From Iphione sp. A-MEVVRFRX5 (taxonomy: Eukaryota), in the NCBI GenBank assembly GCA_976226885.1, contig OZ320313.1, positions 32,116,001-32,180,000 on the forward strand: 64,000 nt of DNA. The letters are read 5' to 3'. Both the position numbers and the translations under genes were made by a program. Positions 13,863 through 57,559 of the stretch are shown one piece after another (position 1 is the first letter of the stretch; every line of letters begins with the position of its first letter). A model generated the notes under the pieces. The model was given only the letters and a program-made list of their open reading frames with translations. It did not search any database and had not been told where the DNA came from.

Positions 13863-13941
13863 CAACTAGAATAGAAAACGACTAATTCAAGATCACATTT
13901 ATGAAGGAAAGGACGGAGCTAGATTTCTGAAAAGTCACAAC

Positions 13942-17913: not shown

Positions 17914-17919
17914 GTTGTT

Positions 17920-27730: not shown

Positions 27731-27842
27731 TTCGGCTGGAAACACACTTCTTTCATCCACCGTTCGCCATCGCAGTTCACTTGAATTAACTGAAATATTG
27801 GACCCACAGTTTTTCACCGGAGGTTCCTCAAAAACTGGGAAA

Positions 27843-33000: not shown

Positions 33001-34583
33001 AACCTTCTGAGAAGAGCACAGAGCACACATATCTTATTTTGTAAACCCAAGAAAACACTGCTTAATAGAACTACTTTCAGCCTACTTCCGGCAGCCGTTT
33101 TAAAAGAGATAGGGTAACTGAACTTTAGTTCTTGTAATTTATATTAAGGCTCTTTATTTGTAATAACACTACCTTATCACTCGGTTCACTCAAATCTCGT
33201 AAACAAAAGCATTAAGAACTACATGCTTGTTTTAAAACTCCTAATACAATACTTGTATAAGTATTTACTATTTTGTGCAATTACAGTAACATTAAGTTTC
33301 ATCTTTCGCTTAACTATTAAATCTGCGAAATATATACTTAATTTCGTACAACACTAAACTGCTAATTATTGACTGTTTACATTCATACTATCTATTAATA
33401 ATTCAGCACTTTAACAGTTGTCACTTAAACAGTAACAAATTCGCCAAAATGTATATCTTAAAATATTGTTTTCGCTTTTTTTGATATATATTTTTTACAT
33501 TATCCTTAACAAAAGTAAACTACTATATAGTAAACATCAATACTTCAAGTAACACAAAAGTTGATTGAAAACTTTTATTCATAAACTTTCAAAAGTAGTC
33601 TACTTGAACTTATAAACTAAAAACTTAAACACTAAACCATGATACAACCGGCGATACATACGTAATCGAATGTTAAACAGACTGATATACCAACTCAAAC
33701 ACCACTGATTGCTTTCATATCAAGTTTTACATAATTCTAAATGAAGTAAACTCCAGCTGAACACTTCATTATACTACACATCCTTTTCAGTACCACAATA
33801 TTTCCATTACCACTGTCCATATAACTAGTACATGTTCTTGCATAAACACTCGTACCAATTTTGTATCTATGTAATACAATGTATCACACACAGCCACACT
33901 TGTGCACAATCCTTGGTGGATATTAGTATGTTACTTAGATGCACACTTGTTTCAGCAGTTATACTACTGTTCGTTGAGCCTCTATGTTGTAAAACACCTT
34001 ACAACTCCTACTAAAATACACAACTCTAAACACTCACTACTAAACACTCACTCTAAATAACCATAATACAAAACTGTTACATAGTACATAACTTTACCTA
34101 AAACGCTATTATGTCAACAACATTATATATAGTTTCTTAACATATTACCACTTGTTCTCATTAATTTTTGTTTAATTGTGTTCTATTTATTTTCGACCTA
34201 CGCTACACACCCAAATTAGGTGGATGTTCTTTATTCTCCAAAAATTATACAAAGATAAACTTTAAAACAAATTGACTTATGCCACACTCATATCACTTGT
34301 CGCTAAAAAGTCTAATACACTTACAGGCTAAACATATGTAATCTAACTAAACTTTGTTACTTCTAATTGTAATCATAAACTCCCACCTTAAAGCTGCTAT
34401 AACCTTTTTGGTTAACTGTTCGTCTAAACCTTATACTTTCCACTAATACAAACACATTTTCATATGAACTGGTATACACAACAACCTGCTTTGCATCCCC
34501 ACTTCGACGTCCTGACATCGGTGTAAACTGCGTTACAAACAAATACAAACCAAACTGTATTATCAACACTTTACACAGTTATC

Positions 34584-36751
34584 TTACTTCTTTTTACTTT
34601 TCTTGCCTGGTGTCGCAATTTGTTGCTCTGAAGTTTTTTCACATGCCTGCCGTTTTGAAGTAGTTCCACGCACGTTGCTTTCCGAACAGCTACTACTTCC
34701 ATCAACTGAAGACAACATCTGTGAGCTATCACTCGCACCCGCAGTAACCACTTCGGCACTCTTTACATGAACATCACTAGGAACCTTAAGCGATATATTT
34801 CTAAGCTGTTCTCCCTCGATTTGCCCATCCAGATAGAACGGAAGATACGGAATAATGTCGTTGTCTGTTGTCAATGGCGCTTGAAGAGCATCCCGCAATT
34901 CGCTTTTCAACACCCATAAGTATTTGCGAATATTTACGACATCACACGACAACCTCCAACTGTCTTCTGTTTCTTTCCCAATTCCATCAATTTTAATCGC
35001 AGCCGATGCTCCACATTCTCCGCCTGTCATCAACTGTACAAATAAAGAAACACAATATGATTACACTACCTATATAAAATGTTCCCTAAAAGTAGTCCAG
35101 TCATGGAGGCTGACATATATGGCCCTACTTTCTACAATCATAGTCAATATTCCTACACCCCTCTGTTCAGTCAAGAAAAACCGAGGGTTGTAGACTTGCA
35201 TGAGGGGTCACAAAACAACGCACTATCTTACAATTCTCTCTCTCTCTCTTTCTCTTTCACTCCTCTCTATCTCTCTCTTGTTGTGTATAAAATACAATTC
35301 TCCATTTCTACGACTTCGCACAACCACTTAGTTAACTTTTATCACATCAAAACTAAAACAAAAACACAAATGCAACCAAATACATCTACTCACATATCTG
35401 AAACCTATGTATTTTGTAGATCTTGTCTAAACTATTTACCTTATATCTTTAAACTAACCAATTCAATACATTGTTTTTACTCGAACAACACCTCATCTGA
35501 ACACTAACAATGTGTTTCTAAAAAACCTTACCTGTATTTCATCTGGATGGTTCACTGTAGCTTCGAAACTTTCTGAGTAACTGTTGTACTTGTAGACAAC
35601 ATTCCGAAAACGGTACATCCTACCAACTTCAAACGTCATAGTCGCAGCTGCTCCCCACACACTGACACCAATGGTCTCTTTGCCATCAGTTATTGTCAAC
35701 TCCCGGATATATTTTTGGCCTCTTGTTGTTGAAACAGTCCTTAACTGCGCAACCTTTTGAATAAACAACAACAGAACATTAACATTGATATTACTAAGTT
35801 TTCTCTCACTTGTAGTTAAATCCACATATAATACAGCAACAGATCGCACAACTTATTTTGATACTAAAAAGTTCTTTACACATCGCTTAAACTGTCTTTA
35901 CGCTGATAGTAATTGAAACTTCTTCAACTAAAAAATAGTGCCAGCAGATTAATACAAAAAACATCTTCCATGTACAAACTTACATTCAATAAGTTTCCCG
36001 AAAAGGATACGGTTTCAGTATCCGATAACTTCATCACCTCCGATACAGTCTTCATAGGCACACCAGTAGTGTTGTCACTCTTGAACAAATCAATAGCATT
36101 GACTTCTTGTTCATTCGATATTTCCAATGGAGTAGCTCTGAAACATAATATCAACACCATGAAACTTATTACTTTTAACATAGCACTTTATACAATTCAG
36201 GAAGGAATTTGTAACCAATGCGACAATATCAAAACCCAACTACAAAACCACTGAAACTTTTACTATTCCGATTAATAAATGCGTCACTTCACAAACATGT
36301 CCACTAGTTTACAACCAAAACATTCCTATCAAATTACTATGAGTTATATTGCATCCACGTTATTCAATTAACGATACCAAAGTTTTCCGACAAAAACGAA
36401 ACAGACAAAACCTATTGCAACTTACTTTGAAATTGTAGTGCCTTTGAGGATTTTCACTTCACCACATTTTACGGCAAAGTCTTTCAGAATAACGGTTTGT
36501 CCTTCTTCGAAGTCCACCTTCACGTAGGCATGTCCGCACACGACACCGCTACCATCAGCCAAGACAAACTTTCGTCGAAGAATAGAAACCGAGTTCTTGT
36601 CTGGCCCAAAGGCCAGCTCGCCTCTGTCTTCTTCCAATTTCACAACAACGCACGTCAATTCTTGTGGAACGTTCCAAACATCGTTCAAATCCGCAATTGC
36701 AATTGTTCTTTGCATTGCTTTAACTGGTGAACGTGCAGCCGCAAAAGCCAT
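34584..36751 (-). CDS. 4-exon OB-fold ssDNA-binding protein (RPA70-like), about 383 aa
   Basis: Exons 36751-36426 (GTAAGT, phase 2), 36137-35984 (GTAAGT, phase 0), 35753-35532 (GTAAGG, phase 0) and 35033-34584 join in frame (1152 nt). OB signatures: RRKFVLADGSGVVCGHAY...FEEGQTVILKDFAVK and VSFSGNLLN|VAQLRTVSTTRGQKYIRELTITDGKETIGVSVWG...FEVGRMYRFRNVVYK. Basic C-terminal tail PGKKSKKK (NLS-like). Confidence 0.85.
35061..35126 (+). repeat. About 66-bp dispersed homolog of 27421-27486, inside intron 3 of the OB-fold gene
   Basis: ttacactacc...aaagtagtcc(a/g)gtcatgg(a/t)ggctgacatat(a/g)tggccct occurs at both sites. Confidence 0.8.
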
Positions 36752-36843
36752 CTTCCAAACTGTCAACGTACTGACTAGAATTACCCGCCAGTAGCAGATT
36801 TTGAGCACGTTAACACTGAACTAATCCATTCGGAAAGATCTAC

Positions 36844-37090
36844 TTATATAAGGCCACACTTGATAAGCTAATAGCAGCTTACTGACCAATAGAAGCACTC
36901 TGTTTTTCGAACATCTGCCTCGCTCGTGATTGGTTGACCTGGGAATGATGTCATTTACTTAATATATGCAAGCAACATTGCGACGGCACCAGGTTGTTCA
37001 ACTCGGTACTCCCCATTAGTATTCAAACCACACCTCCTAAACCAATAGCAGTACTGCCCAACTAACAGCTGATTCTGATTGGTTGATGTA
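36844..37090 (-). promoter_or_regulatory. Promoter of the OB-fold gene
   Basis: TTATATAA at 36844-36851, about 95 bp upstream of ATG 36751. CCAAT/ATTGG boxes at about 36886, 36929, 37042 and 37078. Confidence 0.55.
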
Positions 37091-37420
37091 CTAAATAACC
37101 TTATTCAATGAGGTAACTTCAATCCTACATTAACACATGCACTTGTATTTTATTCATGTATATACGTTTCTAACTGCTACTATTGAACCATTCTTCCGCC
37201 ATACAACTCATTGTTCATGATGACAACCAAACAACACACTGTATACAATATGGTTTTTACAAACGCACACTGTAGCGAACTCCTAATTTGATGTTGTTCA
37301 ACCAAATTCATTGAAAAACAGAATGTACCACAACTACATCAAACACAAATGCCATTTGTTTACTACGACCACTACAATGTTTCTCATCACATGAACACCA
37401 AAATATACTGTTTATGTTTA

Positions 37421-40400
37421 CTAACACAATTCTTGTAAAACTCCAGTAATTGCATTATGGTATGAAAAGGGACAATAACTAATGGACATTTGTACACTCA
37501 TTTGAGTTAAAAACCAGTCTAAACATGTGTTTCCATCCGTAGTAGCTTCTGTAACCTTTTGTTGAACTCCGTATGTCGTTTCCAACCAATTTAAAAAAAC
37601 TAAATTCCGTTCTTCAAACAAACACATATTTACGTCCCCTACTATAACTAACGAATTATTCTTTGGTAGATAAGGAACAGCTGTAAGAAGTAAAGTTTTG
37701 AATGACTCGATTGATGCACGTGGTGCCTTGTATACAATAAAGATTGTTAGCTCAAACTCACTACTACATCTTAAATCCACCAGCAAATATTCACAATTAT
37801 TATACCGGTAACCGTAAGTATTTACAATGGTCAAATCTGTTCTTACATATACAGCTAAACCATGAGACGGCCGAAAAGATGTATTGAACTGTGGTTCTGA
37901 TGCAAACACATTCTTAAAACCAATAATAGGAAACTTTGCAGGACTTTCATCCCTCTTAAAACGTGTTTCAGCGAAACATAACACAGTACTACTCAAAAGA
38001 TACTTATCACAACAAACGCTGCGAAAATGACCAAATAACGATTGAGCGTTTAAAAAAGTGACAGCAAAAGCATTTCGAATTATTGGGATATCTACAAAAT
38101 TCAACGCGACCTGACGGTCTTTTCTTAAACGTTCCATTTCTTTAACAACTCGATCATCCACTGTCACTTTAGTTCTATCAAATGATAGTAAATACAATCC
38201 ACTCAAACTGCGCAGTCTACTAAAACAAACATAATACGTATGAGCGTTAATTGGTCGCGACAACTGAACCGCAACTGAAGACATGGTAGTACCTTGCGCT
38301 CGGTGTACAGTACGTCCACTGCACTGACGCAGCGGAAACTGAGTGCGGTACACTTCCCCCTTCAGTACAAACTTTCTACTAACAACAAACAAAGGAGTCC
38401 AACTAGGGTCGTGGTTCACAGCAAACCTTTTGTGGTACTTCAACCTCTGATTCTTCCCAACATTGGGATCATCGAACTTCAACCACAGAATACTTGGTTG
38501 AGAAATTCCATCAAAATATTGAATTTTTGTCAAAGTACCAGTAGTTCCGTTTGTCAAACCATCCTCCGTATCCATATTATAAGTTATGTCGTACCGTAGA
38601 CCAACACCTACTTTTAAAACTTTCATTAGATCGCCAGTGTCTTTCAAACTTAAACTAGTCGAGGCGATACACTTTGCAATAGATTCTTTCAAGTTATGAT
38701 TCAAAATAACATCTTTTGCATAAATACAAGTTTTTTCAGAAATGCAATTTTCAAAAGCTAAATCATTATGTCTATTTACGCTTTCGTTTGTTGAAAATAA
38801 ATAGTCAGTACCACTTGGTATCTCTTGTACATTGCCAATGATTCTACTTTCAAGCATCTTGTAGTCTTGCTCCGTTTGCAAACCTTCTCTTAACCGATTC
38901 AAAAGCTGTGCAAAGTTTTTGTCGTTGGCTTGACGAACAATAGTCTGTAATTCAAATATTTGGAAATGTTCTCTCCATAAATTTGGAGCCAATCTTGATA
39001 AACCACTTGTATCTAAAAATATCCAACTATCTTTGACAGGCTGCAGTTGATACAAGTCACCAAAACAAATAATATGTATACCTCCAAACAATTGTTTATT
39101 GCCTTTGAGTCTTTGTAGTTGTATATGTATTCGTTCAAGCATGTTTGCTCCAACCATCGAAACTTCATCGACCAATAAGACTTTCAGATCGTTAAATTTC
39201 AACAACTGCGTATTAAGGGTACTGTCTGACATATCTACTATTTGCTTATAATTCCATACCTGCAAGGCACTGTGGATAGTTTTCCCACCTATCAAGAACG
39301 CAGCTTTAGCAGTTGGTGCTACACACAAAACTGAGAGAGCCGAAACTGACATATTACTCGCCAAGTTAAAATGACGTTGTAAGCTATGGTATATTGTTTT
39401 CAATAACAATGATTTCCCAACCCCAGCACCACCTGTTATGAACAAATGCAATTTATTCGCATCGTACAGCACCTCTTTCATGATGTGTTTATAAATTATT
39501 TGTTGCTCACAGGTGAGCAAAGCAACATTATCCAACATTTCACCACGGCTCCAAATGCTATCAATAACTGATGGACGCACACACACATGACCATCTTTTT
39601 CAAAATTTACATCAGTCTGCGGATCATCTCTTACCATGAAAAACAAACAATCATCTTGAATGTCCATTTCCTCTTTGTCACGACTATTTTCATAACCTGT
39701 ATTTGGTGCAACTGTACTTGTGTCAACATTTTTACTTTCTAAATCATTTATTTGTTTTAACAAATTATGAATTGGCTGTTGCACAAACACACAAAACTTT
39801 TCTACTATTTGTTGTTGAACAATACTTTCTAAGTTATGAAACAATTGCGTAAACTTGCTATCTGGTGGTAGTTCTGTCCTCCAAGGTAAACATAACAATA
39901 GCATAATACGAATATATTGTTCTTCGTTATTTTCAAGTGACGGACAATTGAATTTCAACACAGCCCGCTTTACACGTCGTTTATATACTTTAGAATTTGA
40001 ACGATAAAGAATAAAACTGCCTCCTTGCGCATCATCCAACCCAGAAACATTCTTACTTGTACTTTTACTTAAGGTAATGAGAGAACAATAGTCTCCTAAA
40101 CACCATGCTTCGAAAAATGCAGGTCGTGCTTGGTATAGTACCATTTTATCATCAACAAAAATATCTGTAGAATTATCTTCTAACTGTTCTAGTTGACTGT
40201 CGGTTTTCAAGATACGCTGTCTTTCGGAAGCAATTTTCGTATCTAAATATATCACACTAACACTTGTTTTGGTCATTGACATACCTAAAAGCATGTAAAT
40301 ACACTCCTGCGCACTTATTTCAGTACTATTCATAAAACACTTACCTACTTCTTTTAATTGTTCTTGCAAACTACACCGTTTGGATTTCGATTCTTTTAAT

Positions 40401-43400
40401 ATTTGCGACAGCAAAACACTTAAACCACGATGTTGTTTGTTTATATAACTTACAATATAAACTGCACAAGCATACGGATCAATAACATAAGATATATCAT
40501 GATTTGCTTTCCAAACCCCTAACAAATTTTTCATATAAGGATTTACGCGTATGTCTTTCGGTTCTCTTTTCAAAAACACTTTCCATGATGTTAATGAAGT
40601 CCGAACTGCACTAATATACCTCTCTTCGGTTAATTCCAAGTATTTTAAAAAATCGTCAAATGAAAAAGAACTTAATTTATCTTCATCATTCATAAGTTCA
40701 CAAACACGTCGAAAATCACGAATTGCTACCAAATCATCCTTCAAAGGCTCTAACACTTCAGTTTTTCGCATAGGAAAAACAGGAAAGTGAAACCGACAAA
40801 TAGCCTGGCCACGTTTTCTACATGTTCGAGAATGTTTATGCGTCTGTAGATCGATAAATTTCTTGTTGCTGTCCTCCACAGAACTTGAACAACTCACAAA
40901 CTTATCAATATATTCAGCAACTTCAACACTATTCTGCTTATCTGTGCTATACCGAGGATTATTCTTGCACCAAACTAACATGTGAACATGAGGACTTCCA
41001 CGATGTTGAAACTCCACTCGGTAGAAATAATCTTCCACTTCACCTATGGGATTTGCCTTACTCTCTAAAACTCCTCTCAAAAACTTATCAAAGCGAAAAT
41101 CAAAATATCTGGCACAAGTTACCGGATCACTACTAACTAACTGAGCCCTCTTAGTCCATGAAAATTCTTCTATTTCCTCATCTGTATACAAAACATTATC
41201 TATCAAAAGACCAAGTGTTCGCAGCAATGGTATCCAGTACAGATCAGCAGCAGACAAAGACATAAACCACGTAGGAAACCCAAGTTGTCTAATCATAGCC
41301 ATAACATTACTTTGTGCTCGCTCAAAATATTGTGGAGTATTCCTCAACCTATTATACATATAAAACCCTTCATCAGATGTTCGAAGCCTCTCTCTGCTTT
41401 CGCGTGTTGCCACGTCAATCTTGGAATAATGACCTACATTTCTACTACGACGAAGTGCAAAACGCGATACTGCCTTAATCAAAAGACTCTGATATTTTTT
41501 ATATTTGAAGAAAATATTTTCCAAATTTGTTGCGATACGTCTATCAACATTTCGCAATTCAAATTTACACACATCAGAATAACGCATCGAACAATTCACA
41601 TACGGATTAATTCCACCATACAAATGAGGATAAGCCATATACTCTCCATTTGCGTCATAAATTAAACTCAATGGCATATTGTATTCACCCGGAGCAATAT
41701 CGAAAAACAAATCCCCAGTATGAGCATCTAGAAGACTTTGCATTTGCAAATCCTTCTCAGTGACATCAACTTCAGAGAAGTTATCTTCATCACTATCGCT
41801 ATCATCATTGTCAAGTTCCTTAGTATTACAACTTTCGCTGTAACAACGCTCATTGGCTGCTTCATCTACAGATTCAGCTGTCAAACTTGGTCCATCGTTC
41901 ATCAATGCATTAACTGTTTGCGTTAACCAATCGTAATCAATGATAACATTATCTTCTTTATACAAAGGACTATTCTTCACTAACCACTCTAGAGCCTTCA
42001 ACACATTAACAGGGCGCACATTGAATTGCCTGTATGCATGCTTGTTTGAAAGTTTTCTCTTCAACCGAACACATGTAGTACCTGCCGTATTTATGTACCT
42101 CGGCAACTGAACAACAGTATCCTCTACACGTGCCAAAACATTTACAACAGGTCCCTTCAAACTGTATTGAAAACCACGGGGTAAATAACGTATTTGCATA
42201 AATGCGAGACGCCGAGCTACAAGACGTGCCTCATCGACAGTAATTTGTAACTCATGGGGAACAGTCGGCAATATAAATCCGTTCATGTAACAGATACGAG
42301 GTAAACGACGGTCACTAATCGCTTTGGAACATGTTTGACAAATATATTTGCATTCATTTTGAGACTTACCACCTACTACATGTTGAATATGATAGTAAAT
42401 TTCTGAAGTGACTTCCCGAACACTATGAATAAACCACACCTGGCTACACATGCAACAACAATAATGTGGCCCTTCTTCAATGTTAAGAAAAAAACTCTTG
42501 ATACACTTGTCTAACTCATTTGCGGTTGAATCTGTATCAGAAGAAACAACATTACCATTTGTTTTCTTGCGAACTTTTGCATTCTGTGAATTAACTACCC
42601 TGATAGACCGCTTCTGCTTCCTACTCTTTTCACTACTACAGTTTCCAATTATTTGATTTAAAATGTCGGCTTTATCATTGACCACTTTAGTTTTACCACA
42701 AACAGCCTTTTTTCTACCTTTGGTATGTTGTAACGCTACTAAGTTAGGTACAAGCATACCATCACTGTTTATCAACACACTTCTGCAGTTCGGTTCTTTC
42801 AGAGACTTACTTTTCTTGACACTTCTAGTTGTACTACACATGTTCTTCCTTTCAGATTGTAGCCCCGTTTTTTCTTGACTGTTACTACTCTTTTGGACAA
42901 ATTCTTTTACACGAGCACTTCCATTTCTGCTTTTCTTCTGATCGGATTTAGTCTTACTAAACGTCTGAGAAATGCCAGTTGTTTTGATAAAGCCAGAAAT
43001 ATTACCGTTCCGATCCGTTAACCTGTTTCCTTGTACCGATTCACTTACATTAGATCTACATGACTTTTCTGTTGTATGAAACATATCCTTACCTACCCAA
43101 CACCTCAAATTCTCTATCACTTCCATAGCAATGAACCGGTTGGGATAAATAGAATTTATATCTACAAATATTTCACAGAACGTATCAGACAATCCATTTT
43201 GGACCATATGCACCACAGAAATTTCATACTGGAATTGTTGTGAACTATAATATAACTTTTCTATATGACCAATAAGTTCATAAAAATCTTCAAAACATAT
43301 GTGAACAGCTGTACCTTCTGCCGACGGGAAACCTTTTTTAGAACGCGCATGAGAATCAAACATATAGTAAACACCAGTTCTGCAATATACTGCAATAGAC

Positions 43401-43780
43401 AAATGCTGTGCAACAAATATACAGAACGGACTAATCGAGAATGCTTTCACAAACGCAAAATATATGGAATCGCCTTTTGGTATGTGTACACCAACAAAAC
43501 ATTTCACCACATCAAAAAAAATCTTTCTACTATTTACAATCAATAATTGTGGCAACTCACAAGGAGTCAATTGCAAAGCAGTTACTCTCCGGCGAATTTG
43601 TGTATACAGAAAGTCGCCAAAGTCGAGGACATCATCTACATGTCTACTATTTACAATGCCATTACAAAAAACGAACACATACAACAAACAGCCGGCAGCA
43701 ATAGCGGTACATTGATTGCCACGACCACTGTGATTATATACACTACTATTTTGACTCCGAGAACCTTGTAAAACTTTCAT
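37421..43780 (-). CDS. Helentron (Helitron2/HLE2-type) Rep-helicase-endonuclease polyprotein with N-terminal herpes-tegument-type (peptidase C76-like) cysteine protease
   Basis: Uninterrupted 2,129-codon frame, first ATG at 43780. Protease: GSRSQ...GNQC and YYMFDSH. Cys-rich CCMC...CQTC. Rep: LGFPTWFMSLSAAD, YRVEFQHRGSPHVHMLVW (HUH at about 40982), YACAVYIVSYINK. PIF1: ITGGAGVGKS, APTAKAA, DEVSMV, FGDLYQLQPV, QFPLR...TVHRAQG, YVCFSR. APE: FLNAQSL, FAETRF, VYKAP, GDVN, LDWF, SYH. Confidence 0.96.
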   Translation of the reverse strand: MKVLQGSRSQNSSVYNHSGRGNQCTAIAAGCLLYVFVFCNGIVNSRHVDDVLDFGDFLYTQIRRRVTALQLTPCELPQLLIVNSRKIFFDVVKCFVGVHIPKGDSIYFAFVKAFSISPFCIFVAQHLSIAVYCRTGVYYMFDSHARSKKGFPSAEGTAVHICFEDFYELIGHIEKLYYSSQQFQYEISVVHMVQNGLSDTFCEIFVDINSIYPNRFIAMEVIENLRCWVGKDMFHTTEKSCRSNVSESVQGNRLTDRNGNISGFIKTTGISQTFSKTKSDQKKSRNGSARVKEFVQKSSNSQEKTGLQSERKNMCSTTRSVKKSKSLKEPNCRSVLINSDGMLVPNLVALQHTKGRKKAVCGKTKVVNDKADILNQIIGNCSSEKSRKQKRSIRVVNSQNAKVRKKTNGNVVSSDTDSTANELDKCIKSFFLNIEEGPHYCCCMCSQVWFIHSVREVTSEIYYHIQHVVGGKSQNECKYICQTCSKAISDRRLPRICYMNGFILPTVPHELQITVDEARLVARRLAFMQIRYLPRGFQYSLKGPVVNVLARVEDTVVQLPRYINTAGTTCVRLKRKLSNKHAYRQFNVRPVNVLKALEWLVKNSPLYKEDNVIIDYDWLTQTVNALMNDGPSLTAESVDEAANERCYSESCNTKELDNDDSDSDEDNFSEVDVTEKDLQMQSLLDAHTGDLFFDIAPGEYNMPLSLIYDANGEYMAYPHLYGGINPYVNCSMRYSDVCKFELRNVDRRIATNLENIFFKYKKYQSLLIKAVSRFALRRSRNVGHYSKIDVATRESRERLRTSDEGFYMYNRLRNTPQYFERAQSNVMAMIRQLGFPTWFMSLSAADLYWIPLLRTLGLLIDNVLYTDEEIEEFSWTKRAQLVSSDPVTCARYFDFRFDKFLRGVLESKANPIGEVEDYFYRVEFQHRGSPHVHMLVWCKNNPRYSTDKQNSVEVAEYIDKFVSCSSSVEDSNKKFIDLQTHKHSRTCRKRGQAICRFHFPVFPMRKTEVLEPLKDDLVAIRDFRRVCELMNDEDKLSSFSFDDFLKYLELTEERYISAVRTSLTSWKVFLKREPKDIRVNPYMKNLLGVWKANHDISYVIDPYACAVYIVSYINKQHRGLSVLLSQILKESKSKRCSLQEQLKEVGKCFMNSTEISAQECIYMLLGMSMTKTSVSVIYLDTKIASERQRILKTDSQLEQLEDNSTDIFVDDKMVLYQARPAFFEAWCLGDYCSLITLSKSTSKNVSGLDDAQGGSFILYRSNSKVYKRRVKRAVLKFNCPSLENNEEQYIRIMLLLCLPWRTELPPDSKFTQLFHNLESIVQQQIVEKFCVFVQQPIHNLLKQINDLESKNVDTSTVAPNTGYENSRDKEEMDIQDDCLFFMVRDDPQTDVNFEKDGHVCVRPSVIDSIWSRGEMLDNVALLTCEQQIIYKHIMKEVLYDANKLHLFITGGAGVGKSLLLKTIYHSLQRHFNLASNMSVSALSVLCVAPTAKAAFLIGGKTIHSALQVWNYKQIVDMSDSTLNTQLLKFNDLKVLLVDEVSMVGANMLERIHIQLQRLKGNKQLFGGIHIICFGDLYQLQPVKDSWIFLDTSGLSRLAPNLWREHFQIFELQTIVRQANDKNFAQLLNRLREGLQTEQDYKMLESRIIGNVQEIPSGTDYLFSTNESVNRHNDLAFENCISEKTCIYAKDVILNHNLKESIAKCIASTSLSLKDTGDLMKVLKVGVGLRYDITYNMDTEDGLTNGTTGTLTKIQYFDGISQPSILWLKFDDPNVGKNQRLKYHKRFAVNHDPSWTPLFVVSRKFVLKGEVYRTQFPLRQCSGRTVHRAQGTTMSSVAVQLSRPINAHTYYVCFSRLRSLSGLYLLSFDRTKVTVDDRVVKEMERLRKDRQVALNFVDIPIIRNAFAVTFLNAQSLFGHFRSVCCDKYLLSSTVLCFAETRFKRDESPAKFPIIGFKNVFASEPQFNTSFRPSHGLAVYVRTDLTIVNTYGYRYNNCEYLLVDLRCSSEFELTIFIVYKAPRASIESFKTLLLTAVPYLPKNNSLVIVGDVNMCLFEERNLVFLNWLETTYGVQQKVTEATTDGNTCLDWFLTQMSVQMSISYCPFSYHNAITGVLQELC

Positions 43781-45062
43781 TGTAAAGTACAGCTGTTCTT
43801 TTTTCAACACTTTATATTCAATGTCAAAAACTTAATACTTTCCCATTATACCACATAAAAGAACAATAACTTTTCTCTATATTTTTATCCGTCCTATTAT
43901 TTGGTTATCGTCTCACTGATAGCACACCAACACAGTCTTTGATTGAAAAAAGCCTACATTTACAAATCAACAATAAACTAATAAACTTGCGAACAACCAA
44001 CCTTTTCACATAAAATTGTTTCACAACATGTGGTTTTACTCTGTCATAACCCCAAACTATACTTATTTAAATACAACGCGTACACAACAACATCAACTTT
44101 TGACGTCGCAGTAATATTAACCTCCTTCACATTACACACCTATCCTCTTCTTTCTGAATTGCTCTCCACAAACCCAACCAACTATAACACGAACACTACC
44201 GACCTCGGCTGCCACCATGAACAATGCGGACTCTGTGCTAACACCCACCCTTTTTATATAAAACCTACTTGTCTAATCTTCAGTTGCCGACACAAAAAAT
44301 GTTCATCAATACAAACTCTCTTGTTGTTGTAGAAACATCCCCCTATGTGTCATACCGACCACAACGCCATAAAGTAAAAAGACCAGAACATCAAAGTACT
44401 CTACTATCTGTCACGGAAATCTTACACTATAAAAACCGACACAGCGTACAACGCACAAATAAACACATAAACTTAAAAGCGGCTAAGAATCCACAAACCC
44501 AAACCGACCGGAACCAATCCCTACCATCTTTTGAAAAACATTTAAAAACTATTTTTCTTATTCCAATACCCACATACTTCGTTAAAAATGATACAAACTA
44601 ATACCATATTAACAAACAAGTCTACAAAATCTTCTATAACAGTTTATTGACTAAATTCGTATACGCTTCCACCAATGCTTAATTTGCTTTTTACTTCTTC
44701 TAATTGCTTTATTAGCGTTCAGGTTTTCCTCATTCAAACTATTAGCATTCCTTTTAAGAATAGTGCACAGTAACACTAAACATTAAACACGAAAATAATA
44801 AACTATTTCTATTAAAACAGTTACGTTTGACAGCGAAACCCTAAAATTTTGCAATTAAACTTATACTTTAACCATACTTATAAATAGTTGATAAATTCAC
44901 ACCGATTCACTCTAAAAAATATTCAACTACACACACACTCTTTCCATTCTTATACATAATGTTTGAATTATTAAAACACAAAACTTATATAGTTAAAAAC
45001 AGATATATTCCCACCCTCTTTCAAGTTTTCAGTCATCACACTACGCTCTTACATATCGTTTA

Positions 45063-45090
45063 TGTGATTGGTCAGTTTTGAACCAATCAC
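45063..45090. promoter_or_regulatory. Inverted CCAAT pair in the divergent interval between the transposase and gene D
   Basis: gTGATTGGtcagttttgaaCCAATCAc lies 200 bp upstream of ATG 45290 and about 1.3 kb upstream of the transposase ATG on the other strand. Confidence 0.45.
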
Positions 45091-45289
45091 AGTTCACGAA
45101 CATCTTTGCACACGGTACTGTTCCGCTCTGGTCGTTTGGACCACGCCTACCACTCTCTACTTACTTGTTCGCAGCATTTCTCGCCGAGTACCGCTACCAC
45201 ATACTAATTGTACTATTTACTACCACAGTCGTATACAAGAATCTTACAATAAGCCATTAACGGTTTATCACCTTGGCTTCTATACTAAT

Positions 45290-46912
45290 ATGGACATCCG
45301 ACGAGTTGTATGGAAACCTAAACAGATACTTACCAAAGACACAGGTATGTACTAATTACCCGCAAACTACACACTATACAATGTTCCAAGTACTATTTCT
45401 GCGAACTTCCAAACTACACTCATATAAACACATCGTCCAATATTTTCAATGCGGTTCGCATCAGCCGCTACAACGCCGTAGTCTTCACACATATCGCCTT
45501 ACACACTTAGACAGAACACAACGAACACACGTACAACCAGTGAAGATATTCTTACCAGCAAACAATACTCACTTTATATAAACCATACATTCAACTCGTA
45601 TGTGATTACTTCTTCCATATTTCCAATGTATTCCACTTATACGTAATGTTTCATCTCGGACTATATCTTTGTTGATTTAATTCTCTTTCAGCCACTTGGA
45701 CTACAAACGATGTGCCTCTACTGCCCACCAGTCAGGACCCACAAACTATTACTACTTGTAAGTATGGACACTATAGCAATCTTTAAAGGAAACTTCTTTA
45801 GATTTCTAAACATATATCAGTCTTAGTCTTTATTATTACAACTGTGTCCTCATAGCACTCCACTAAACTCTATCCACCTATTAACTTTTGTTGGTTCAGA
45901 AGACCCTATGCTACAGTATTACCTTAGAATATACAACACCTCCAACCAAAACAATTTGCGCCCAATTATTTCCGTCCTTCACATGTTTCCCGGCCTCACC
46001 TCCTTCCTATCCCTAAGAATGCCTGCTGCTACTATCCCCTAAACCTAAAGCACTATACCCGCGTGTGAGAACCATCTACACCCGCACCGCTAAAAGTAAG
46101 ATACAGCATATCCCGCCGAAGCAGTTGCCTAAGTTATACCCATGTATCTACCCAAATGTACGGACCTTCTACACCTACCACGTTGTCAGTAAACTACGAC
46201 ATGTCCCACCGGAGTAGTTACCAAATTATATTCATATATTTCTGTTTTGATACTAAGTCAGCCTATAGATAACACAATTGGCGCATCATCAACAGAGGAC
46301 CCCAAAACAAGCAACCTTAACCACAATACCACTCTGATGACTCCCTTAGTCTCTCTCTCTACCTACCATGACTCATACCAAACCACAGTTGTTTAATTTT
46401 AATATTAACTAAAAAAAAATGTTCAATAAGTCATCCTCTTCCTCAGGTACTTGGACGCAACCTGATGCGAACACAGTCGACCTGACATGCTACCATGTCT
46501 TCACAAACACTTCATAACTATACAAATAACCAATAATACTCCTCATATTGTTCTAGTGCCTACCGCAATAAATGAACGCCATTCTACAACCTCAAACTAA
46601 TTTTGCACTTTACTTCCAGTTCAACCAGTTCCGATCCCGGCTGACGCAATCCAGAATGTACTAGCAGAACTCAGCTATCTTCGAACGATCACATTGAATC
46701 TACAGAGTGAAAACAAGTTACTCCAACAACAACTACACCAGGCAAATGATGAAATCGTACACTGTCGTCACGCAATAAGAAGCTTGCAACATGACCAAAG
46801 CATGACAAAACAGTCTTTCGGAAACTTCCACTTGCAAGTTGAGGCTCTAGTTCGCCATCAAAGCGTTGTCGATACCCACATTAATACGCTCATTTGTTCG
46901 CAAACTGAATAA
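45290..46912 (+). CDS. Spliced gene D, C-terminal coiled coil; paralog of gene B; middle exons uncertain
   Basis: Exons 45290-45344 (MDIRRVVWK..., GTATGT), 45692-45757 (tttcAG, 66 nt, GTAAGT) and 46620-46912 (cttccAG) are frame-compatible. A further exon may start at 46448. Last exon LSYLRTITLNLQSENKLLQQQLHQANDEI...AIRSL...TKQSFGN aligns to gene B. Confidence 0.65.
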
Positions 46913-48649
46913 AAATGTTGGAAAGACAATAATCTACTTTAACAATATGTTCTTCAACGACAATAAACTTTTAAATACTGTTGTTTTTAACGTCGCATGA
47001 ACAAAACTAATTAACGCAACCAGTTAAACCTAAACTTACGTCATGCCACCTTCAGTTCAATAAAATGTTTCCAGAAATCACTTGTCATGTTGTTCTTACT
47101 GCCACTAGTATTGATGTTAAACTATATAAACTATCTAGTTCTGCTACTAGTTGCGGAACGTACAATAGACTATTGATTTTTGTTATAACCTGGCATTAGA
47201 CATTAAAGATGTCCTAATTTTCCGCCACTACGAATCAGAGATATGAGTAACTCCTCTACTGCTAAATGCTACAAAACAAAATAACAGAAAAAAAAAGAAC
47301 ATAAAGCCCACCCACTATCCTGGTTCTCCAACGCAAACGAATAAGAGTATCAAAAAAACTCCTCTACTGCTTCTTGTTCAGAAAACAACAAATAGATAAA
47401 TAATATAGTGAACCCGACACACTAAACAAACAAACAGATGGTGAAAACTGATTTTTCACTTATGTGATACTACAATGCTCATTATCTTTTTATATGTATC
47501 ACTTTGTATATTAATGTTTAAAGTTAAAGTCAATTTAACCATTCTACTTATAGTGAACTTAAATACGAAAACTACAAATAACAATATATGTGCAAACATT
47601 TCTTCTGTCACCCAATGTACCCCACCATAATTATGCACATCTCATTCACGACTCATATAGATCTACTTTTAAATATCCCCATGTTAATTACTATTAATTG
47701 CTTTACGCATTTGCACTTAAGTCCTGTTTTCGACAATACCTAAGAAGCACACAAAGATGTTGTGTTCACTTTTTTTCCAAAACTGCTCCATTTTTATCTA
47801 CACTTACACACAACCACACTAACCAGCGCACTTTAACGAGAACGTTATTCTTCCTATCACACTTTTTCTTGCAATTATTTCACTTAAACCGAACTTTTGC
47901 TGACCCTATATGTCACTCAACTTCAAACAATACTAAATCAATACCAGGAAATAAGTTTAACGACGCATTTACCCGTATCCACCATTTGCATAAACTTAAA
48001 TCTTTGCAACAACCAACTAGTAACTTGCACTTAATCTACAACCGCGTGATTAATCAAGTACCTCGGCGCCATGGACTAGACACACCACCGTCTTTCACTG
48101 ATAGTCACTTTTCAATACCAATATCGCCACCTATTAATTACACAACGCTTTTGATTATCTAACGCCAGAACCCTTCCGAAACAACATCACAAAACCACAC
48201 ATCCTTCTAATCAGCAACCTATGTCGCTCACTTCAACGTCAACCACCACTATCCCATTTGAATTACACTTACAACGCCTATTCCTAACACATTGTAGTTC
48301 TTACCAGCGACGCGACGTCACTGCCTTCTATCAACAAAACATGTTCTTCCTAACACTTCGACAAGCTACTGCTATCACTGACCTAAACCCAACTGCACGC
48401 CATATTATGCAACTTTTTGCGACAGACTCGATTTTATATCCAACAAACGTCTTAAGCATAGCTTTAGAAATAAAGATAGCATTTTACAACACTAGATCAT
48501 GCTTCAATGATCATGAACAGTAGAGATACACCACACTGTGTAGAGGAAGTGCCACATATATCAGCTCCCATAGCGGAACTACTTTTGGGCAACGTTTTAT
48601 ATAGGTAGTGTAATAAAACTTCAGTCAACGCTTTAAACAACGACTGCTA

Positions 48650-49100
48650 TCACTGACAGTTTAACGACCGCCGGCTTTATCAATTCGCCCGCCTTATCGC
48701 TAGGGACCTGTTGCGCAATGTTTCTGACGGTACCGTGATGTCCCCAGGCCGCGCCCTACCTGCCGCCTACTCTTCCATCAACACGGTATAGCTACAACCG
48801 CTACCTCAAATAACAAAGGCAACCGCTCGATACCACCGTGCAGATACACCAATCACGACCTATGCCCGCACGTGACAAACCAGTCCACTCATTTGCATAT
48901 CCGCAAGACCTGCCTACATCCGCATATCTTTTACTATAAATACCTAGCGCATCCATACCACCCACAACACTTCGTTTCCGACAGCCACCATCGCTTCATT
49001 TGCTACAAGCCTACACTCGAACGTTAACTTCAGACCGCTGTGAGAAGAAGTCACCGCCTCACTCACTATCACGCTGTCGCAACAAATTAACAAGTAAGTA
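48650..49100 (+). promoter_or_regulatory. CpG-rich promoter-like island with an apparent non-coding first exon
   Basis: CCAAT 48849, CACGTG 48869, octamer ATTTGCAT 48891, TATAAATA 48935, splice donor GTAAGT 49094. Confidence 0.55.
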
Positions 49101-49225
49101 ATTCGTGTACGTACAACAACTCGACACACTATACGACCACCATCATAAGATTGACGGAAACTTCATTTTAATACACCAACTTGAATACTAGTCAGTTACG
49201 CTCACATTATACAATAAGAACACAC

Positions 49226-49447
49226 ACAGGAGGTGTCAACTATTTTGGTGAAACGTTATTGATGATTTTAGTTCAGCGCTAAACGTTATTTGCCCTTCTC
49301 AATTGTGGTGAAACGTGATTGAGCAAATACTAGTGAAGCATTATCAGGGAATTATTTCATGGTGAAGCATTATCTGACCTTTCTTTAAGCACTCGGCTCA
49401 TCTGAATTCTTGGTGAAACGTTATTGAGCCCCCCTGACCCCCCCTGT
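49226..49447. mobile_element. 222-bp MITE with 13-bp TIR and 7-bp TSD
   Basis: acaggaggtgtca...tgacccccccctgt-like ends (2 mismatches over 13 bp). AACACAC on both flanks (49219-49225, 49448-49454). Six internal ggtgaa(a/g)c(g/a)ttat-like motifs. Confidence 0.65.
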
Positions 49448-50485
49448 AACACACTTGTCGCACAATTCAAACTCTACAAACCATGACTACATTCCGAACA
49501 TATGCAAAAACAATAACAACGTACATGTTGTTCCGATAGAACCTTTAAACTACCTATATAACACGTTACCTAACTGTAAAGCATGGAAAAAACATCATAT
49601 GTGTATGACAATCTTCCTGGTCCTCATAATTAAGTAATGTAAATCTTTTGGAATATCACTGCTCTATGTTTCAAGGTAAAACCGCAATGTAAATAACAAC
49701 ATAAATTTCTACACTACTTTTCAGTAACATGTTATCCCTTACCGATTTGTACATATAGAGCCTATACTTTAACCATATAAACAACTAGACATCATAAGTG
49801 TAATTTGTCCATGAACCGAACACACTTATAATTACACAATTGACCACTTTCTTTCCCGGAATTACAACCACTCACCTGACACGTAGCACTGACCTGTAGA
49901 TACTCAGTCAACTTAAACCTCAACTGAATTGGTTCTACAATACTCATCACTTCACTAACGCTACGCTTTGTAAGTTTCTTCCACACATATACTACCCTGT
50001 TAAGAAACTTGGCCAAACAATCCGCCCGATGGACACTTTCACTGCCACTTAAACTTCCGTACACCATTTGTTATAGAACATTTTATCAACTTTTCAACTT
50101 CCTGTTCCAACAAATTTACATATCTGTGCACTTTGTTTAAACCCTACAGCTGTCAACTCAGCGGTTGACCATACATACCTAATAGACAACTATAAGGACA
50201 TCGGCTATCTCAACATCCACCATAAAAACGCCTTAACTCCGGTAAGTGCCAAACATGTACACTTGACATTCACTATTAACACTTGCAAAATACAACCTAA
50301 CCTACGCTACTTACATACAACTTCCGCCTTCAGAAATTTCACCATGGTCTACTTTTTCCAACCCAGTTTTTCAACTTCTAAATTACAACTACAATTTTTA
50401 CGTTGACCTATACAAACTACAAATACGCATATATATATGATTAAACCCTGTCAATTGAGTCCTCTTTTGTACACACACTACTTAC

Positions 50486-50951
50486 GGTAACCGGTCAACT
50501 GGGCCCGTAAGTCAATTGAACCCGTCAACTAAGCCCCTAGTCGGCGGTGGTGGTGGCGGCGGCGGCGAGAGTGTCGCACTGCCGGCCCGTAATGGGCGGT
50601 GGTAACGGCCGCGGCAACGACCACTGTGTTATCGCACTACCGGCCCGTAGTCGGCGGCGGCGGCCACAATGTTCAAACTCCATCTAGTGCATTCTGTTGG
50701 TAATATATGTCTATATGTGAGACCCCCCACACCCCCCTTATTTCTGTAAAGGATCTTGACTGAAAAGGGTGGACGGAGACCCCCCGCACCCCCCCCCCCT
50801 TTTTTGTAAAGAATCGTGACTGCAAAAAATGTCAACTGACATGAGAAGGAATTGAACCTGTATATCTGGCACAAGTCCCCTGGTGGACCGAATCACTTAC
50901 GGGCCCAATTGACGGGCCCAATTGACTTACGGGCCCAGTTGACCAGGAATC
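50486..50951. mobile_element. 466-bp GC-rich MITE with long TIRs and 8-bp TSD
   Basis: ggtcaactgggcccgtaagtcaattg near the left end is perfectly inverted near the right end. CTACTTAC on both flanks (50478-50485, 50952-50959). Confidence 0.85.
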
Positions 50952-53049
50952 CTACTTACTAGTGTCCCGTTACATACCACATCTTCCCTAACAATGTTGT
51001 CATAGATTCTTGAAATCGGCAATCCAACCACTTCTATCTAACACTATATGAACAATCAGCTGTAAGCTAATTTTTTCCAATGTTACTATCATCATGAAAC
51101 CTATTGTTGAACTATATAGTTATATCCTCAATCTACATCATTAGTTCAGTAACTTATGCAAGATGTAACATACCATATTAATCTAGTTTAAATGTTGCAC
51201 ATATGAACACTAGCACCGATATTCTGCATTTGCCACTGTAACTATCCATGCCTGATGAACGAAACAAATTGAATTAATAATTAATGCTACATCCCAAACC
51301 CCGCCGGGACTCACTACCACCACCAAACACCTTAAATGTAAAAACCAACTACACACTTGTCCTTTGCTTGCCTCCCTAATCTACGTACACTTCCACTTAT
51401 CCATCATAAATTACGCAGAAATGGAACCATCGTTAACAACAACTTTTCTCCTACAGACATTCACGGACAAGTATTCGCCCCGGACACCATCACAAGATTA
51501 CATGTAGTAACCTTTTTCCAACTCAACAACGACTTCAGGTAAGTTATAGGCACACTCTCTTGTTTTCCACATTGGTAAAGTTGTCACAGAACATTGTGTT
51601 TACCGACTATTTTACTGATACACTTTTCACTTACCAACTTTTGTATACACTATACCGACTACAATAACTCATTGACCATTCATGAAATTTTAACACTACT
51701 CTACTGAAAGCGCCAACAACCTAAAACACACATTTTTCTTTACAGAACACCGAGACAACGAAACACCTCATAATAACTTCAACACTCTACACCGGTTTCG
51801 TCATTAACTTCTGGCCTTCTGTACCAAGTATGGTTAATACCAATCTCAGGCACCTGACACTCTGAGATGCACTTCGGCCATACTTACCTACGCGCCACAT
51901 GTCCGGACGATTCTACTGACTAAAACATCTGCTCCGCGCCCGACAAGACATCAACCCCAAGACTACAACCATCTTTCCGCCGTAACTCCTTAAGAAACCC
52001 AAAACGTCTTTGGTAAATTACTTCACGTAGCACTGTATATTCTGTGGACCTCCATGTGTAAGATCATGTCAGAGCCATGACTACTTTACGGACACTGAAA
52101 TGAACACACACTTTTCATCCCAACTAAGTGAATTGATTTAAACCTGACTCCTTTCCAGATTAGTATTATTTCACAACACACATTATTGTCACATTAGGTA
52201 TAGTTTTAGTAAATACTCTGTACCTCTTGTCTTGTTATCACACTCTCACGTCTCGAACATTATGTATTACCGAGTTCGACTTTATACTCTTAACTAACAC
52301 GTATTTCATTTCAGAAGTGTTCTCCCTGCACCAGAACACTCAATCCATTTACTTCGATTCTTCCATTGAGAACGTGTGAAAAGTACTTATCGTAAACTTA
52401 TACTGCTACCTTCCTTCAGCCACTTCAGACTACACTCGACACAGACTCTATAACCTTGTCAACTGTTTTGTGCAGCATATTTTTTCACCAGTTCTTCTTT
52501 GCAAAGAATCTAGCACCTAAACTATTCCTCTTTCCGTCTACTTCTTCAAGAACCAACCTCATCCATACATTCTTCTCTGCGTACAAAAACATTGACTTTT
52601 CTTCCTTATTACTTACCAAACTTACCTATTGTATCCACCTGTACTTCTACCAAGGTCATCAGAAATCGACACCAAACATTGTGTATTTATCGCATTAACT
52701 ACAAACCATTAACCTACCCACCTAAGTTACAAACCTTGCCTCTAAATTAAACTTTAAAAACTTCTTTGAATTCAAATCCATAATGTTTTCCGCAATCATT
52801 CGGTCAAATACCAACACATGTGCCTCTATTTCTTTCACCAATTATGTAAATAACTATCTAATGTTTCCGCCAATAACATAAGTCACCGCCACACTTATTG
52901 CAACTCAAGGTTAGTCTTGTTGACCATTGAATGAATTCCTTTGTATTGTTCAGATTCCTCACTGCTCAGTACCAATGCTTCTTTGATTAGTACCTTCTTC
53001 TCCCAAAAATACACTAATCCAATACCGCTTCCTTGTCTTGCTTCCACAG

Positions 53050-54650
53050 CTCTTCGTACTCATTTTCATTTACTGAAGTCCTTATCCCTTGTTTCACTTT
53101 TAAAAGCAACTAAAACTACACATAGTAAAAACCAACTTACACTTAACAAGTGTAATTCCGTCTCACCAACCTTCATTAGACAATTGGCCAAATTTTACAT
53201 GACACTTTCCAGTTGAACTTAATGGAATTCTGTCAATTTCTTCATCTCCATTACAACCTTCTTCTAGTCCAGTTCTTGATTCATTCCTGCATGGATTTTC
53301 CCTTATATTGTTCAAGTTCCTAAGTATAAATGCCAATGCTTCCTTGATCAATGCCTTCTTCAGACTATCTCCTAAATTCCCTACCTCTACCGAATGTTAT
53401 GCTCCTGCATAAATTTTTCCCTCACATTGTTCAAGTTCCTAAGTATCAATGCCAATGCTTCTTTGATCAATGCCTTCTTCAGACTATCTCCTAAATTCCC
53501 TACCTCTACAGAATGCTATAATAATCCAACTCACATTCTTGGGCTACCTTCACAGCTATTTTTTCTCTCATGAATACACTCAATCCTTATCCCTTAGTTC
53601 ACTTTTAGGAAAAAACTAAAACTATACCATATACTTCATATTACACTAGTCAGGAAAATACAATCCCAATTTCCTTCATACGCTGAAGCCTAGATTTTAC
53701 CTGACACATTCCAGTGCACGTTACTAGTATTATGCGAGTTGAACAATATTCATTGCAACCTTCTTCTCGACCGGTTCTTAATCTCTAATTCTTTCACTAA
53801 AATCCTTGTCCCCTTGGTTCACTTTCAAATCGGAACTAAACTACATCGTGTACTCAACTTAACCTTGTCAGATATAATACCGTCCCACTTACCTTCGTTA
53901 CACTATGCCTCAGTTATCACTACAGTCTCTACATTAACTCGTAGATAACACAACTAAAACTATATGGTATACTCCAGCTTACACGTGCCAAACGAAACCA
54001 CTCACTTCCCTTCATTACGCATCTAGACTCCATTTTGCATTTTGGTCTCTTCTTTCACTTTTACAATAACTAAAACTATATCGTGTACTCAAAGTTACAC
54101 TTATCCAATGTACCACCGTCCCACCTCCCTTAATTACACTAAAACTTCCATCTCCGTGGTATCCGAATTACACTTATCAAACGAACACCATCCCACCTCC
54201 CTTCATTACACTAAAACTTACATCTTGCTGTCGCTTTCTAGTACCAGTTACTAGAAAGCGACAATTCATTCATGCCCATTGCAACTTTCTTCTGATCCTG
54301 TTCTTGTCATACTCCTAAGCATTTATGCACTATGTCTTTCGCCTCGTACTACCACATTCCTTTTATACTACTACGCTTATTGCACTCTATTACGCTGTAG
54401 ACTTGGTTATACAATTTCATCCTTTGGTTCACGTTTCCATAAAAAACTCATTACCATATACCCCGTCCTACACTTGTCAAATTAAATATCATCCCACTTT
54501 CTTTCATTAAGCCTTTACACTCCATTTTACGTTTTCATCCCTTGGTTCACTTTTAGCAAAGATGTACTATATTATGAACTCCAGCTTACACTTATCAGGT
54601 GTACTACTGTCCCACCTACCTTTATTACACAAATGGTCATATTTTGCTTA
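53050..54650. repeat. Degenerate repeat cluster including an about 120-bp tandem duplication (53307-53510)
   Basis: ttgttcaagttcctaagtat.aatgccaatgctt...ccctacctctac occurs twice. cccttg/agttcacttt...aactaaaacta recurs at about 53085, 53590, 53850 and 54540. Confidence 0.7.
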
Positions 54651-55019
54651 ATACTTTTACTAATATAAATGGTGTTCTGCCAGTTCATTCATATCCATTA
54701 CAGCCTTCTTCTCGTCCTGAACAACTTCGTGCCTACACTTCGTTCGAAATTCCACAAATTATATAAAATATCATTGTCTTCATTTGAATTGCATTTAACT
54801 TGCCCTCCTCACCTCATTTCCATACTACACTAGAAACACCAGCAAACACCTTAAAACCCATAAAGTATAATAATACAGAAACCTTTTGTCCTCACAACAC
54901 AACTACTTAACATACAATATCCTTGCATAACCTCTATTTCCTACCTATCAACTGCTGTATTCAGTATACATACCATGAAACATACTTTTTACTACATGAA
55001 ACATACAGCACACGACCTA

Positions 55020-55262
55020 TTCCACAATTATATCTACTACTTACACATCCTCGCACACTCCCTCGATTCGAACAAAAATATGTGCGATGAGTTCGACAAA
55101 AACTCGAACATGTGACACAGTAACTATTCTACAACACTAAACATCCATACACACAACATGTCCCTCAATTATATCTGCTGCTTACACATCCTCGCACACT
55201 CCCTACATTGGAACAAGAATGTGTGCGATGAGTTTGACAAAACTCAAACATGTGACACAGTG
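55020..55262. repeat. Tandem duplication, about 143 bp
   Basis: caattatatct.ct.cttacacatcctcgcacactccc...gtgcgatgagtt.gacaaaa...catgtgacacagt occurs twice. Confidence 0.85.
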
Positions 55263-57490: not shown

Positions 57491-57559
57491 TTTGAACAAA
57501 ACTAAACCCACTTAAAATTACTTCAAGTCAATGACCAACGCTTACACACCCGCACGGAC

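Follow-up and report, generated by a model that had tools for sequence, protein, structure and literature searches.

A viral tegument-like deubiquitinase domain fused to a transposase encoded by an 80.5-kb Helentron of Iphione sp.

Introduction

The viral tegument-like deubiquitinase (VTD) family was named by Erven et al. (2022), who described 1,221 non-viral homologues, mostly within the open reading frames (ORFs) of Helentrons from vertebrates, insects, cnidarians and molluscs (PMC9741609). Here, we describe a VTD domain at the N-terminus of a Helentron transposase encoded in a 64,000-nucleotide window of the genome of Iphione sp. A-MEVVRFRX5 (assembly GCA_976226885.1, contig OZ320313.1, hereafter C1, positions 32,116,001 to 32,180,000). 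According to Erven et al., three zebrafish VTD domains cleave K48- and K63-linked ubiquitin chains, with K11-linked chains also among the substrates of relatives, and mutants of the catalytic triad are inactive; the structure 8ADD was solved in the same study (PMC9741609). In the zebrafish domain DrT1-VTD2, the D376A substitution lowers activity and deletion of the ubiquitin-binding loop abolishes it, with Glu377 described as the more important of the residues contacting the ubiquitin tail (PMC9741609). The proposed role of these domains is to shield transposition proteins from the proteasome, and herpesviruses probably acquired theirs from a Helitron in the published view (PMC9741609).

Helentrons are described as carrying 12-bp subterminal inverted repeats, a 5′ inverted repeat, a 3′ stem-loop and T-rich junctions (Thomas et al. 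2014, PMC4067079). A Herpes_teg_N domain in the transposase ORF is a listed trait of the HLE2 subgroup b in the HELIANO classification (PMC11417382). The largest Helitron-like element in Repbase is given as 39,893 nt (Li et al. 2024, PMC11417382), and a Helitron of 39 kb is reported from maize (PMC6431247). The fusion of a VTD with a Helentron transposase, whose novelty was implied when the Iphione domain was first predicted from sequence, is already published (PMC9741609; PMC11417382), and our search of the literature since 2022 for VTD deubiquitinases in Helitrons turned up nothing beyond PMC9741609. The Iphione protease is a further member of this known family and adds one enzyme to those described in 2022. 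Our preferred reading, which we hold at a probability of roughly 80%, is that this protease, carried on the transposase of a Helentron of 80.5 kb, removes ubiquitin (perhaps NEDD8) and thereby protects the transposase during copying.

Results and Discussion

Family, fold and catalytic residues of the protease domain

Residues 1-195 of the transposase belong to the VTD family of cysteine proteases, and their catalytic triad, Cys24-Asp142-His144, is intact (Table 1). The Pfam profile Herpes_teg_N (PF04843) matched the first 200 residues with 31.2 bits (E 2.2e-7) and the whole protein with 26.8 bits, against a cut-off of 25. The OTU profile produced no match at E<=0.1 across the 2,119-residue protein, and an OTU assignment was rejected on this ground; by contrast, the database relative P0111 carries OTU at 67.8 bits. 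OTU proteins were also absent among the best 50 rows of the fold comparison, a result that does not by itself exclude OTU. The only PDB sequence match under E 0.9 was 8ADD (E 1.2e-4). The AlphaFold model of the domain (pLDDT 95.4) superimposed in Foldseek on 8ADD with a TM score of 0.90 and on the herpesviral M48 structure 2J7Q with 0.82, and the corresponding VIA Z scores were 28.1 (rmsd 1.9, 193 residues aligned) and 23.3 (rmsd 2.1, 185 residues aligned). These matches far exceed those to other folds, and the predicted model contains the alpha-beta-alpha fold of M48 and 8ADD.

The original prediction of a domain of the C76/Herpes_teg_N type and not of the OTU type, with all catalytic residues retained, was thus borne out by profile, predicted fold and alignment. 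Peptidase C76 is the MEROPS label of the herpesvirus large tegument deubiquitinase family. The motifs QGSRSQ, GRGNQC and YYMFDSH on which the prediction was built are present in ORF 37421-43780, but its residue numbers (34, 152 and 154) are 10 too high when counted from the ATG at 43780, and its boundaries of about 11-200 need to be moved accordingly. The C34A mutant proposed as a control would replace a tyrosine, the catalytic cysteine being residue 24.

A search of 1.84 billion representative proteins returned 338 matches at E<=0.001, with 23-46% identity among the best 150. Twenty relatives chosen from these 150, with long proteins favoured, all carry Herpes_teg_N; 11 of them also have Helitron_like_N, three more have DUF6570 and one has OTU. 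Several top matches (P0002-P0008, P0010 and others) align over 3-7 separate stretches each, which fits tandem multi-VTD proteins; those of insects have been described as inactive (PMC9741609). For the alignment, eight copies from the same genome were combined with 39 short single-domain relatives taken from the best 150 of the 338 proteins. The nucleophilic cysteine is present in 37 of these 39 database relatives and in all eight own-genome copies, and in the D-x-H motif of the database relatives the aspartate is kept in 38 and the histidine in 39. A profile built from the 47 relatives matched 8ADD (E 2e-38), the herpesviral tegument deneddylases (1e-16 to 8e-7), M48 (1e-12) and also the VTD of Waddlia.

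Domain layout of the transposase

The window contains a single long ORF (37421-43780, minus strand, 2,119 residues). From its N-terminus it encodes the VTD, a linker, a Cys-rich/DUF6570 region (491-619), a Rep domain (783 to about 1115), a PIF1 helicase (1422-1638) and an endonuclease-like C-terminus; the Pfam boundaries are 7-149 for Herpes_teg_N, 491-619 for DUF6570, 783-936 for Helitron_like_N and 1422-1638 for PIF1. The Rep domain has an HUH motif at 926-933 and two tyrosines at 1108 and 1112, and the presence of this HUH/two-Tyr Rep, the helicase and DUF6570 in one ORF identifies the protein as a Helentron (HLE2) transposase. The VTD is joined to these domains and to the weak endonuclease match in one unbroken frame, in agreement with the predicted N-terminal fusion. 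The AP-type endonuclease region (1932-2067) matches Exo_endo_phos with 18.7 bits (E 0.0016), below the cut-off of 24.5, and its candidate catalytic motifs are kept in all six copies compared. The start codon at 43780 is conserved in five of five compared loci, and the DNA upstream of it differs between subfamilies. A 5′ extension of the ORF was considered and rejected, as conservation begins only at the ATG; the gene may have a spliced 5′ exon. The older copies on contigs C4 and C11 show Walker B Asp to Asn and Walker A Ala to Asp changes, respectively, and their transposases may be non-functional because of these single changes in helicase motifs.

The position of the VTD ahead of a long basic linker, together with the fact that viral deubiquitinases often process polyproteins (PMC9741609), would suit a protease that cuts its own polyprotein and releases the transposase, as the original prediction had suggested. 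Such cleavages typically follow a di-glycine (PMC9741609), and there is no Gly-Gly in the linker (residues 195-430) in any of six copies. The three Gly-Gly pairs checked outside the helicase motifs (470, 722 and 1253) are not kept across subfamilies, and a search of PMC9741609 by two terms gave no mention of self-cleavage. We therefore regard self-processing as very improbable.

The strength of selection was estimated by the Nei-Gojobori method from between-subfamily pairs, whose dS of 0.6-2.5 makes the values rough. The VTD has dN/dS of 0.11-0.16 in all five pairs, which indicates purifying selection, compared with 0.34-0.83 for the adjoining linker and 0.05-0.09 for the Rep and helicase regions where dS is unsaturated. 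A modelled complex of the VTD with the host's own ubiquitin scored 0.64 against 0.27 for the best of three controls, with contacts agreeing to at least 84% between runs, a partner pLDDT of at least 85, and Gly75 and Gly76 of ubiquitin touching Cys24. Among microbial pairs, 51 of 78 solved ones reach the mark for this score, as do 2 of 108 mismatched ones (39 of 65 and 2 of 126 for eukaryotic pairs). The predictor may be reproducing the similar complex 2J7Q, which is already solved, and the pass shows likeness, not binding. The ubiquitin tail is predicted by this model to dock at Cys24, and by analogy residues 1-195 are predicted to cleave ubiquitin or NEDD8, an activity shown in the zebrafish relatives only.

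The transposase lies within an 80.5-kb element

DNA identity around the four closest copies of the locus runs far past the transposase ORF, and their comparison places the entire window inside a single Helentron whose termini both lie beyond the window. The 5′ end has a 12-bp subterminal repeat (ATGGAGGTCACA) within a hairpin, and the 3′ end has an inverted copy of this repeat followed by a short GC hairpin, with T-rich junctions. The subterminal inverted repeats, 5′ inverted repeat and 3′ stem-loop of Helentrons are accordingly all present. The shared unit measures 80,511 bp on C1, 79,899 bp on C13, 80,019 bp on C15 and 106,129 bp on C4, where an insertion of 29,119 bp is counted in, and the other three copies differ from that on C1 by 0.54%, 0.54% and 1.65% substitutions.

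These four full-length copies, located on four contigs, have the same terminal structures at both ends and unrelated flanks, and they were probably produced by transposition of the whole unit. They might instead be segmental or assembly duplicates bounded by the ends of small Helentrons, since the sequence of the 5′ end abounds in the genome (1,025 candidates, 40 scored), very large Helitron-like elements are unreported, one related copy on C2 breaks off without termini and the 5′ ends of a second subfamily were not found (see below). However, all four copies break at the terminal structures at both ends, the 3′ end has only seven genome matches, four of which are these copies, and each copy holds private substitutions (271, 53, 53 and 953). 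In addition, two copies of another subfamily likewise end at termini with different flanks, and a strand-composition gradient spans the element from end to end. Together, these observations make duplication an improbable origin. The 1,025 candidates for the 5′ end suggest a large non-autonomous family with the same ends. The insertion in the C4 copy (C4:48820367-48849485, at window position ~35087) contains an ORF of 479 residues, together with imperfect terminal inverted repeats and a TAA-type duplication, and appears to be another large transposon, nested in the C4 copy; the ORF presumably encodes a Harbinger-type transposase, judging by its motif.

A genome-wide search yielded 15 matches out of 18 candidates, of which 12 are full-length and 11 have no stops; the full-length copies form groups at 99-100%, 65-69% and 56% identity. 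A VTD match lies ~2.6-2.9 kb upstream of Rep in 11 of 13 genomic Rep matches. Two subfamily C copies, C22:47947193-48183549 (plus strand, 236 kb) and C22:32821640-33050549 (minus strand, 229 kb), are ~99.6% alike, with 60 kb in the middle of the 229-kb copy left out of the comparison, and have canonical ends and different flanks. The third, on C2, matches over only 85.6 kb and breaks off without termini. Two copies of subfamily B have 46.5 kb in common, reaching a similar 3′ end; no 5′ ends were found in the stretches around them. A literature search by title and start of abstract, which did not extend to subscription journals, Repbase or Dfam, revealed no Helitron-like element larger than the published 39,893 nt; HELIANO's supplementary tables could contain long predictions.

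Role of the deubiquitinase

During rolling-circle transposition, the Rep protein becomes covalently tied to the 5′ end of the DNA. Such an adduct would be a target of host ubiquitin-dependent proteolysis, and a tethered deubiquitinase would counter it. We propose that the VTD would remove ubiquitin chains, perhaps also NEDD8, while the transposase copies the element, its substrate probably being the transposase itself or its partners.

Several points weigh against this proposal. The domain shares only 23% identity with 8ADD (Foldseek alignment), Cys74 occupies the position of Asp376 of DrT1-VTD2, and the ubiquitin-binding loop has 14 residues compared with a family median of 19; the cysteine and the shorter loop could lower or shift the activity. 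The role is not essential in general, because many Helitrons have no deubiquitinase at all, and no paper testing a VTD in transposition was found. At the level of the element, T or TT at both junctions without target duplication was read in the four copies from filled sites only.

The first of these points raise the possibility that the short-loop VTD of this lineage now acts on a different ubiquitin-like protein, or is weak or binding-only. All eight own-genome copies have Cys74 and the 14-residue loop, and a quick tree gives them a long branch of 1.07 changes per column with a support of 100. Against this, the triad, Gln10/Gln23 and Glu75 are invariant, purifying selection is strong, and in the modelled complex the ubiquitin tail docks at Cys24. 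The family varies at position 74, with aspartate in 11 of the 39 relatives as compared with an acidic residue at position 75 in 38, and loops equally short occur in seven. Such a shift or loss of activity is therefore unlikely.

Alternatively, the VTD may be an active deubiquitinase or deneddylase acting mainly on host proteins, such as cullin ligases or components of DNA-damage and germline defence signalling. Two of the three zebrafish Helentron VTDs are efficient deneddylases, the viral BPLF1 acts on cullins, and domesticated VTDs are testis-specific (PMC9741609). However, the activity of the remaining zebrafish VTD toward NEDD8 is negligible (PMC9741609), and all intact Iphione copies have the domain attached to the transposase, which favours local action. 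Although the two roles are inseparable by sequence, we consider a mainly host-directed protease possible but rather doubtful, and retain protection of the transposase as the preferred role.

A broader picture, in which animal Helentrons move 80 to ~236 kb as single rolling-circle units (2-6 times the largest catalogued), ferry nested transposons and their accessory genes, record the single-stranded time of each strand during copying in their skew gradient and strand-switching C-to-T bias, and have their DNA-bound transposase sustained by the tethered deubiquitinase over such long runs, is in our judgement evenly balanced. A link between the deubiquitinase and giant size is speculation, VTDs being widespread in Helentrons. 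If elements of 80-236 kb do transpose intact, rolling-circle transposition can rearrange much bigger pieces of animal genomes than has been supposed, and software seeking ends within 10 kb of the transposase (the HELIANO default, PMC11417382) would miss them. The young, intact and near-identical copies make both the role of the deubiquitinase in transposition and the exposure of single strands during copying testable.

Strand asymmetry

On the transposase-sense strand, GC skew falls linearly from ~+0.35 to -0.25 along the 80-kb element, with flanks near zero; its Spearman correlation with position is -0.96 (-0.97 after masking of tandem repeats). The corresponding value is -0.81 for subfamily C and -0.90 for one subfamily B copy, and the trend is weak or absent at two other subfamily B copies (0.04 and -0.56), for which the stretches extend past the part that matches. 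Of 11 control stretches, 10 remain within 0.21 and one reaches 0.52; the latter borders the C2 copy on its broken 5′ side and may itself belong to the element. Using the private changes of the three young copies (those of C4 could not be polarised and were left out), the ratio of C-to-T over G-to-A rates was 4.5 in the 5′ third (34 and 15 changes; p 4e-7), 3.0 in the middle third (34 and 15; p 2e-4) and 0.56 in the 3′ third (20 and 27; p 0.055). The bias thus switches strand between the 5′ and 3′ parts. We infer cytosine deamination on the strand left single during copying, with the 5′ end being where the sense strand is exposed for the longest time; contributions from transcription or host replication are also possible. 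A literature search by title and start of abstract turned up no paper on strand skew in Helitrons.

Cargo and other features

The cargo of the 80-kb family (subfamily A) comprises 92 ORFs of at least 85 residues with three Pfam matches at E<=0.001, one of them over its cut-off (a piggyBac-type DDE fragment), and Pfam revealed no herpesviral genes among the element's ORFs. Downstream of the transposase, 34587-36820 is likely an RPA/SSB-like OB-fold gene, a lead from sequence with no curated match. It is conserved in all three subfamilies with 41-60% identity among the matches listed; its OB-fold clusters score 0.95 (recognition 2280), just below the tool's mark, and an archaeal SSB matches at E about 1. 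The gene at 16145-17913, which runs antisense to the transposase, had no Pfam match at E<=0.001 and a best Atlas score of 0.81, and belongs to no known family. The ORFs at 46601 and 24837 are likely paralogues, because both match the same subfamily B locus. Many internal tandem arrays with periods of 29-313 bp occupy 267-9150 and 53285-58685, and those near 53-57 kb have relatives in one subfamily B copy.

Subfamily C contains 126 ORFs (five just beyond the ends), mostly encoding reverse transcriptase, integrase, gag, a piece of type-B polymerase and DDE fragments, so that nested transposons explain part of its size. It also carries C2H2, ankyrin and NADAR ORFs, and apparently Polinton-like pieces.

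Table 1. Positions of the features in the 64,000-nucleotide window.
Feature	Position	Strand	Details
Window, interior of one 80,511-bp Helentron	1..64000 (element: window coordinates 64888 to -15622; C1:32180888-32100378)	-	Copy comparison
Helentron transposase ORF	37421..43780	-	2,119 residues; domain order from Pfam scan and motif positions
VTD (Pfam Herpes_teg_N) domain	43196..43780	-	Residues 1-195; profile, fold, alignment
Cys24, predicted nucleophile	43709..43711 (codon)	-	Aligns with Cys322 of zebrafish DrT1-VTD2
Asp142-Ser-His144, D-x-H motif	43349..43357	-	Asp142 codon 43357-43355, His144 codon 43351-43349
Cys74-Glu75	43556..43561	-	Positions of the DrT1-VTD2 ubiquitin-tail binders Asp376/Glu377; Glu kept, Asp replaced
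Lys/Arg/Ser-rich linker	42491..43195	-	Fast evolving, no di-glycine
Putative RPA/SSB-like OB-fold gene	34587..36820	-	Four open segments (likely exons); downstream of transposase
Cargo gene common to subfamily B	16145..17913	+	Three open segments; 50-85% identity among the matches listed
Short ORFs, some coiled-coil-like	46601-46909, 29463-30077, 24837-25259, 21744-22406	+	Counterparts in subfamily B at rearranged positions

Comparison with known systems

With the HLE2 subgroup b, the Iphione element shares DUF6570, Rep, PIF1 and Herpes_teg_N in one ORF, together with a candidate C-terminal endonuclease, as well as the 12-bp subterminal inverted repeats, 5′ inverted repeat, 3′ stem-loop and T-rich junctions (PMC4067079; PMC11417382). 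It differs in its size of 80.5 kb (~229-236 kb in the sister family) against the 39,893-nt Repbase maximum, and in the distance from the helicase to the 3′ end, which is ~54 kb compared with a maximum of 16.8 kb given for HLE2 (PMC11417382). Its OB-fold gene lies downstream of the transposase, whereas HELIANO places RPA upstream in HLE2 (PMC11417382), and the end-to-end gradient of GC skew also sets it apart.

The zebrafish domains DrT1-VTD1, DrT1-VTD2 and DrT2-VTD have in common with the Iphione VTD the fold (TM 0.90 and Z 28.1 to 8ADD), the triad of Cys and D-x-H, a glutamate at the ubiquitin-tail position and the N-terminal place in a RepHel ORF with a C-terminal endonuclease, putative in Iphione. 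The Iphione protein differs in having one VTD and no OTU, in its low identity, in the cysteine replacing Asp376 and in the shorter loop; activity is established for the zebrafish domains and predicted for the Iphione one. The herpesvirus proteins M48, UL36 and BPLF1 (PF04843; 2J7Q) share the profile match over its cut-off, the fold (TM 0.82, Z 23.3) and the order of the triad, but they are virion proteins, whereas the Iphione domain sits in a transposase.

Teratorn is reportedly a 180-kb fusion of piggyBac and a herpesvirus. By description, Teratorn and the fungal Starships are also giant mobile DNA with cargo, but they use a different class of transposase, and the Iphione cargo consists of tandem repeats, orphan genes and nested transposons, the ORFs of subfamily A having revealed no viral core genes. 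It is the giant, recently mobile Helentron that goes beyond the published sizes cited here, and the enzyme it carries is itself a known one.

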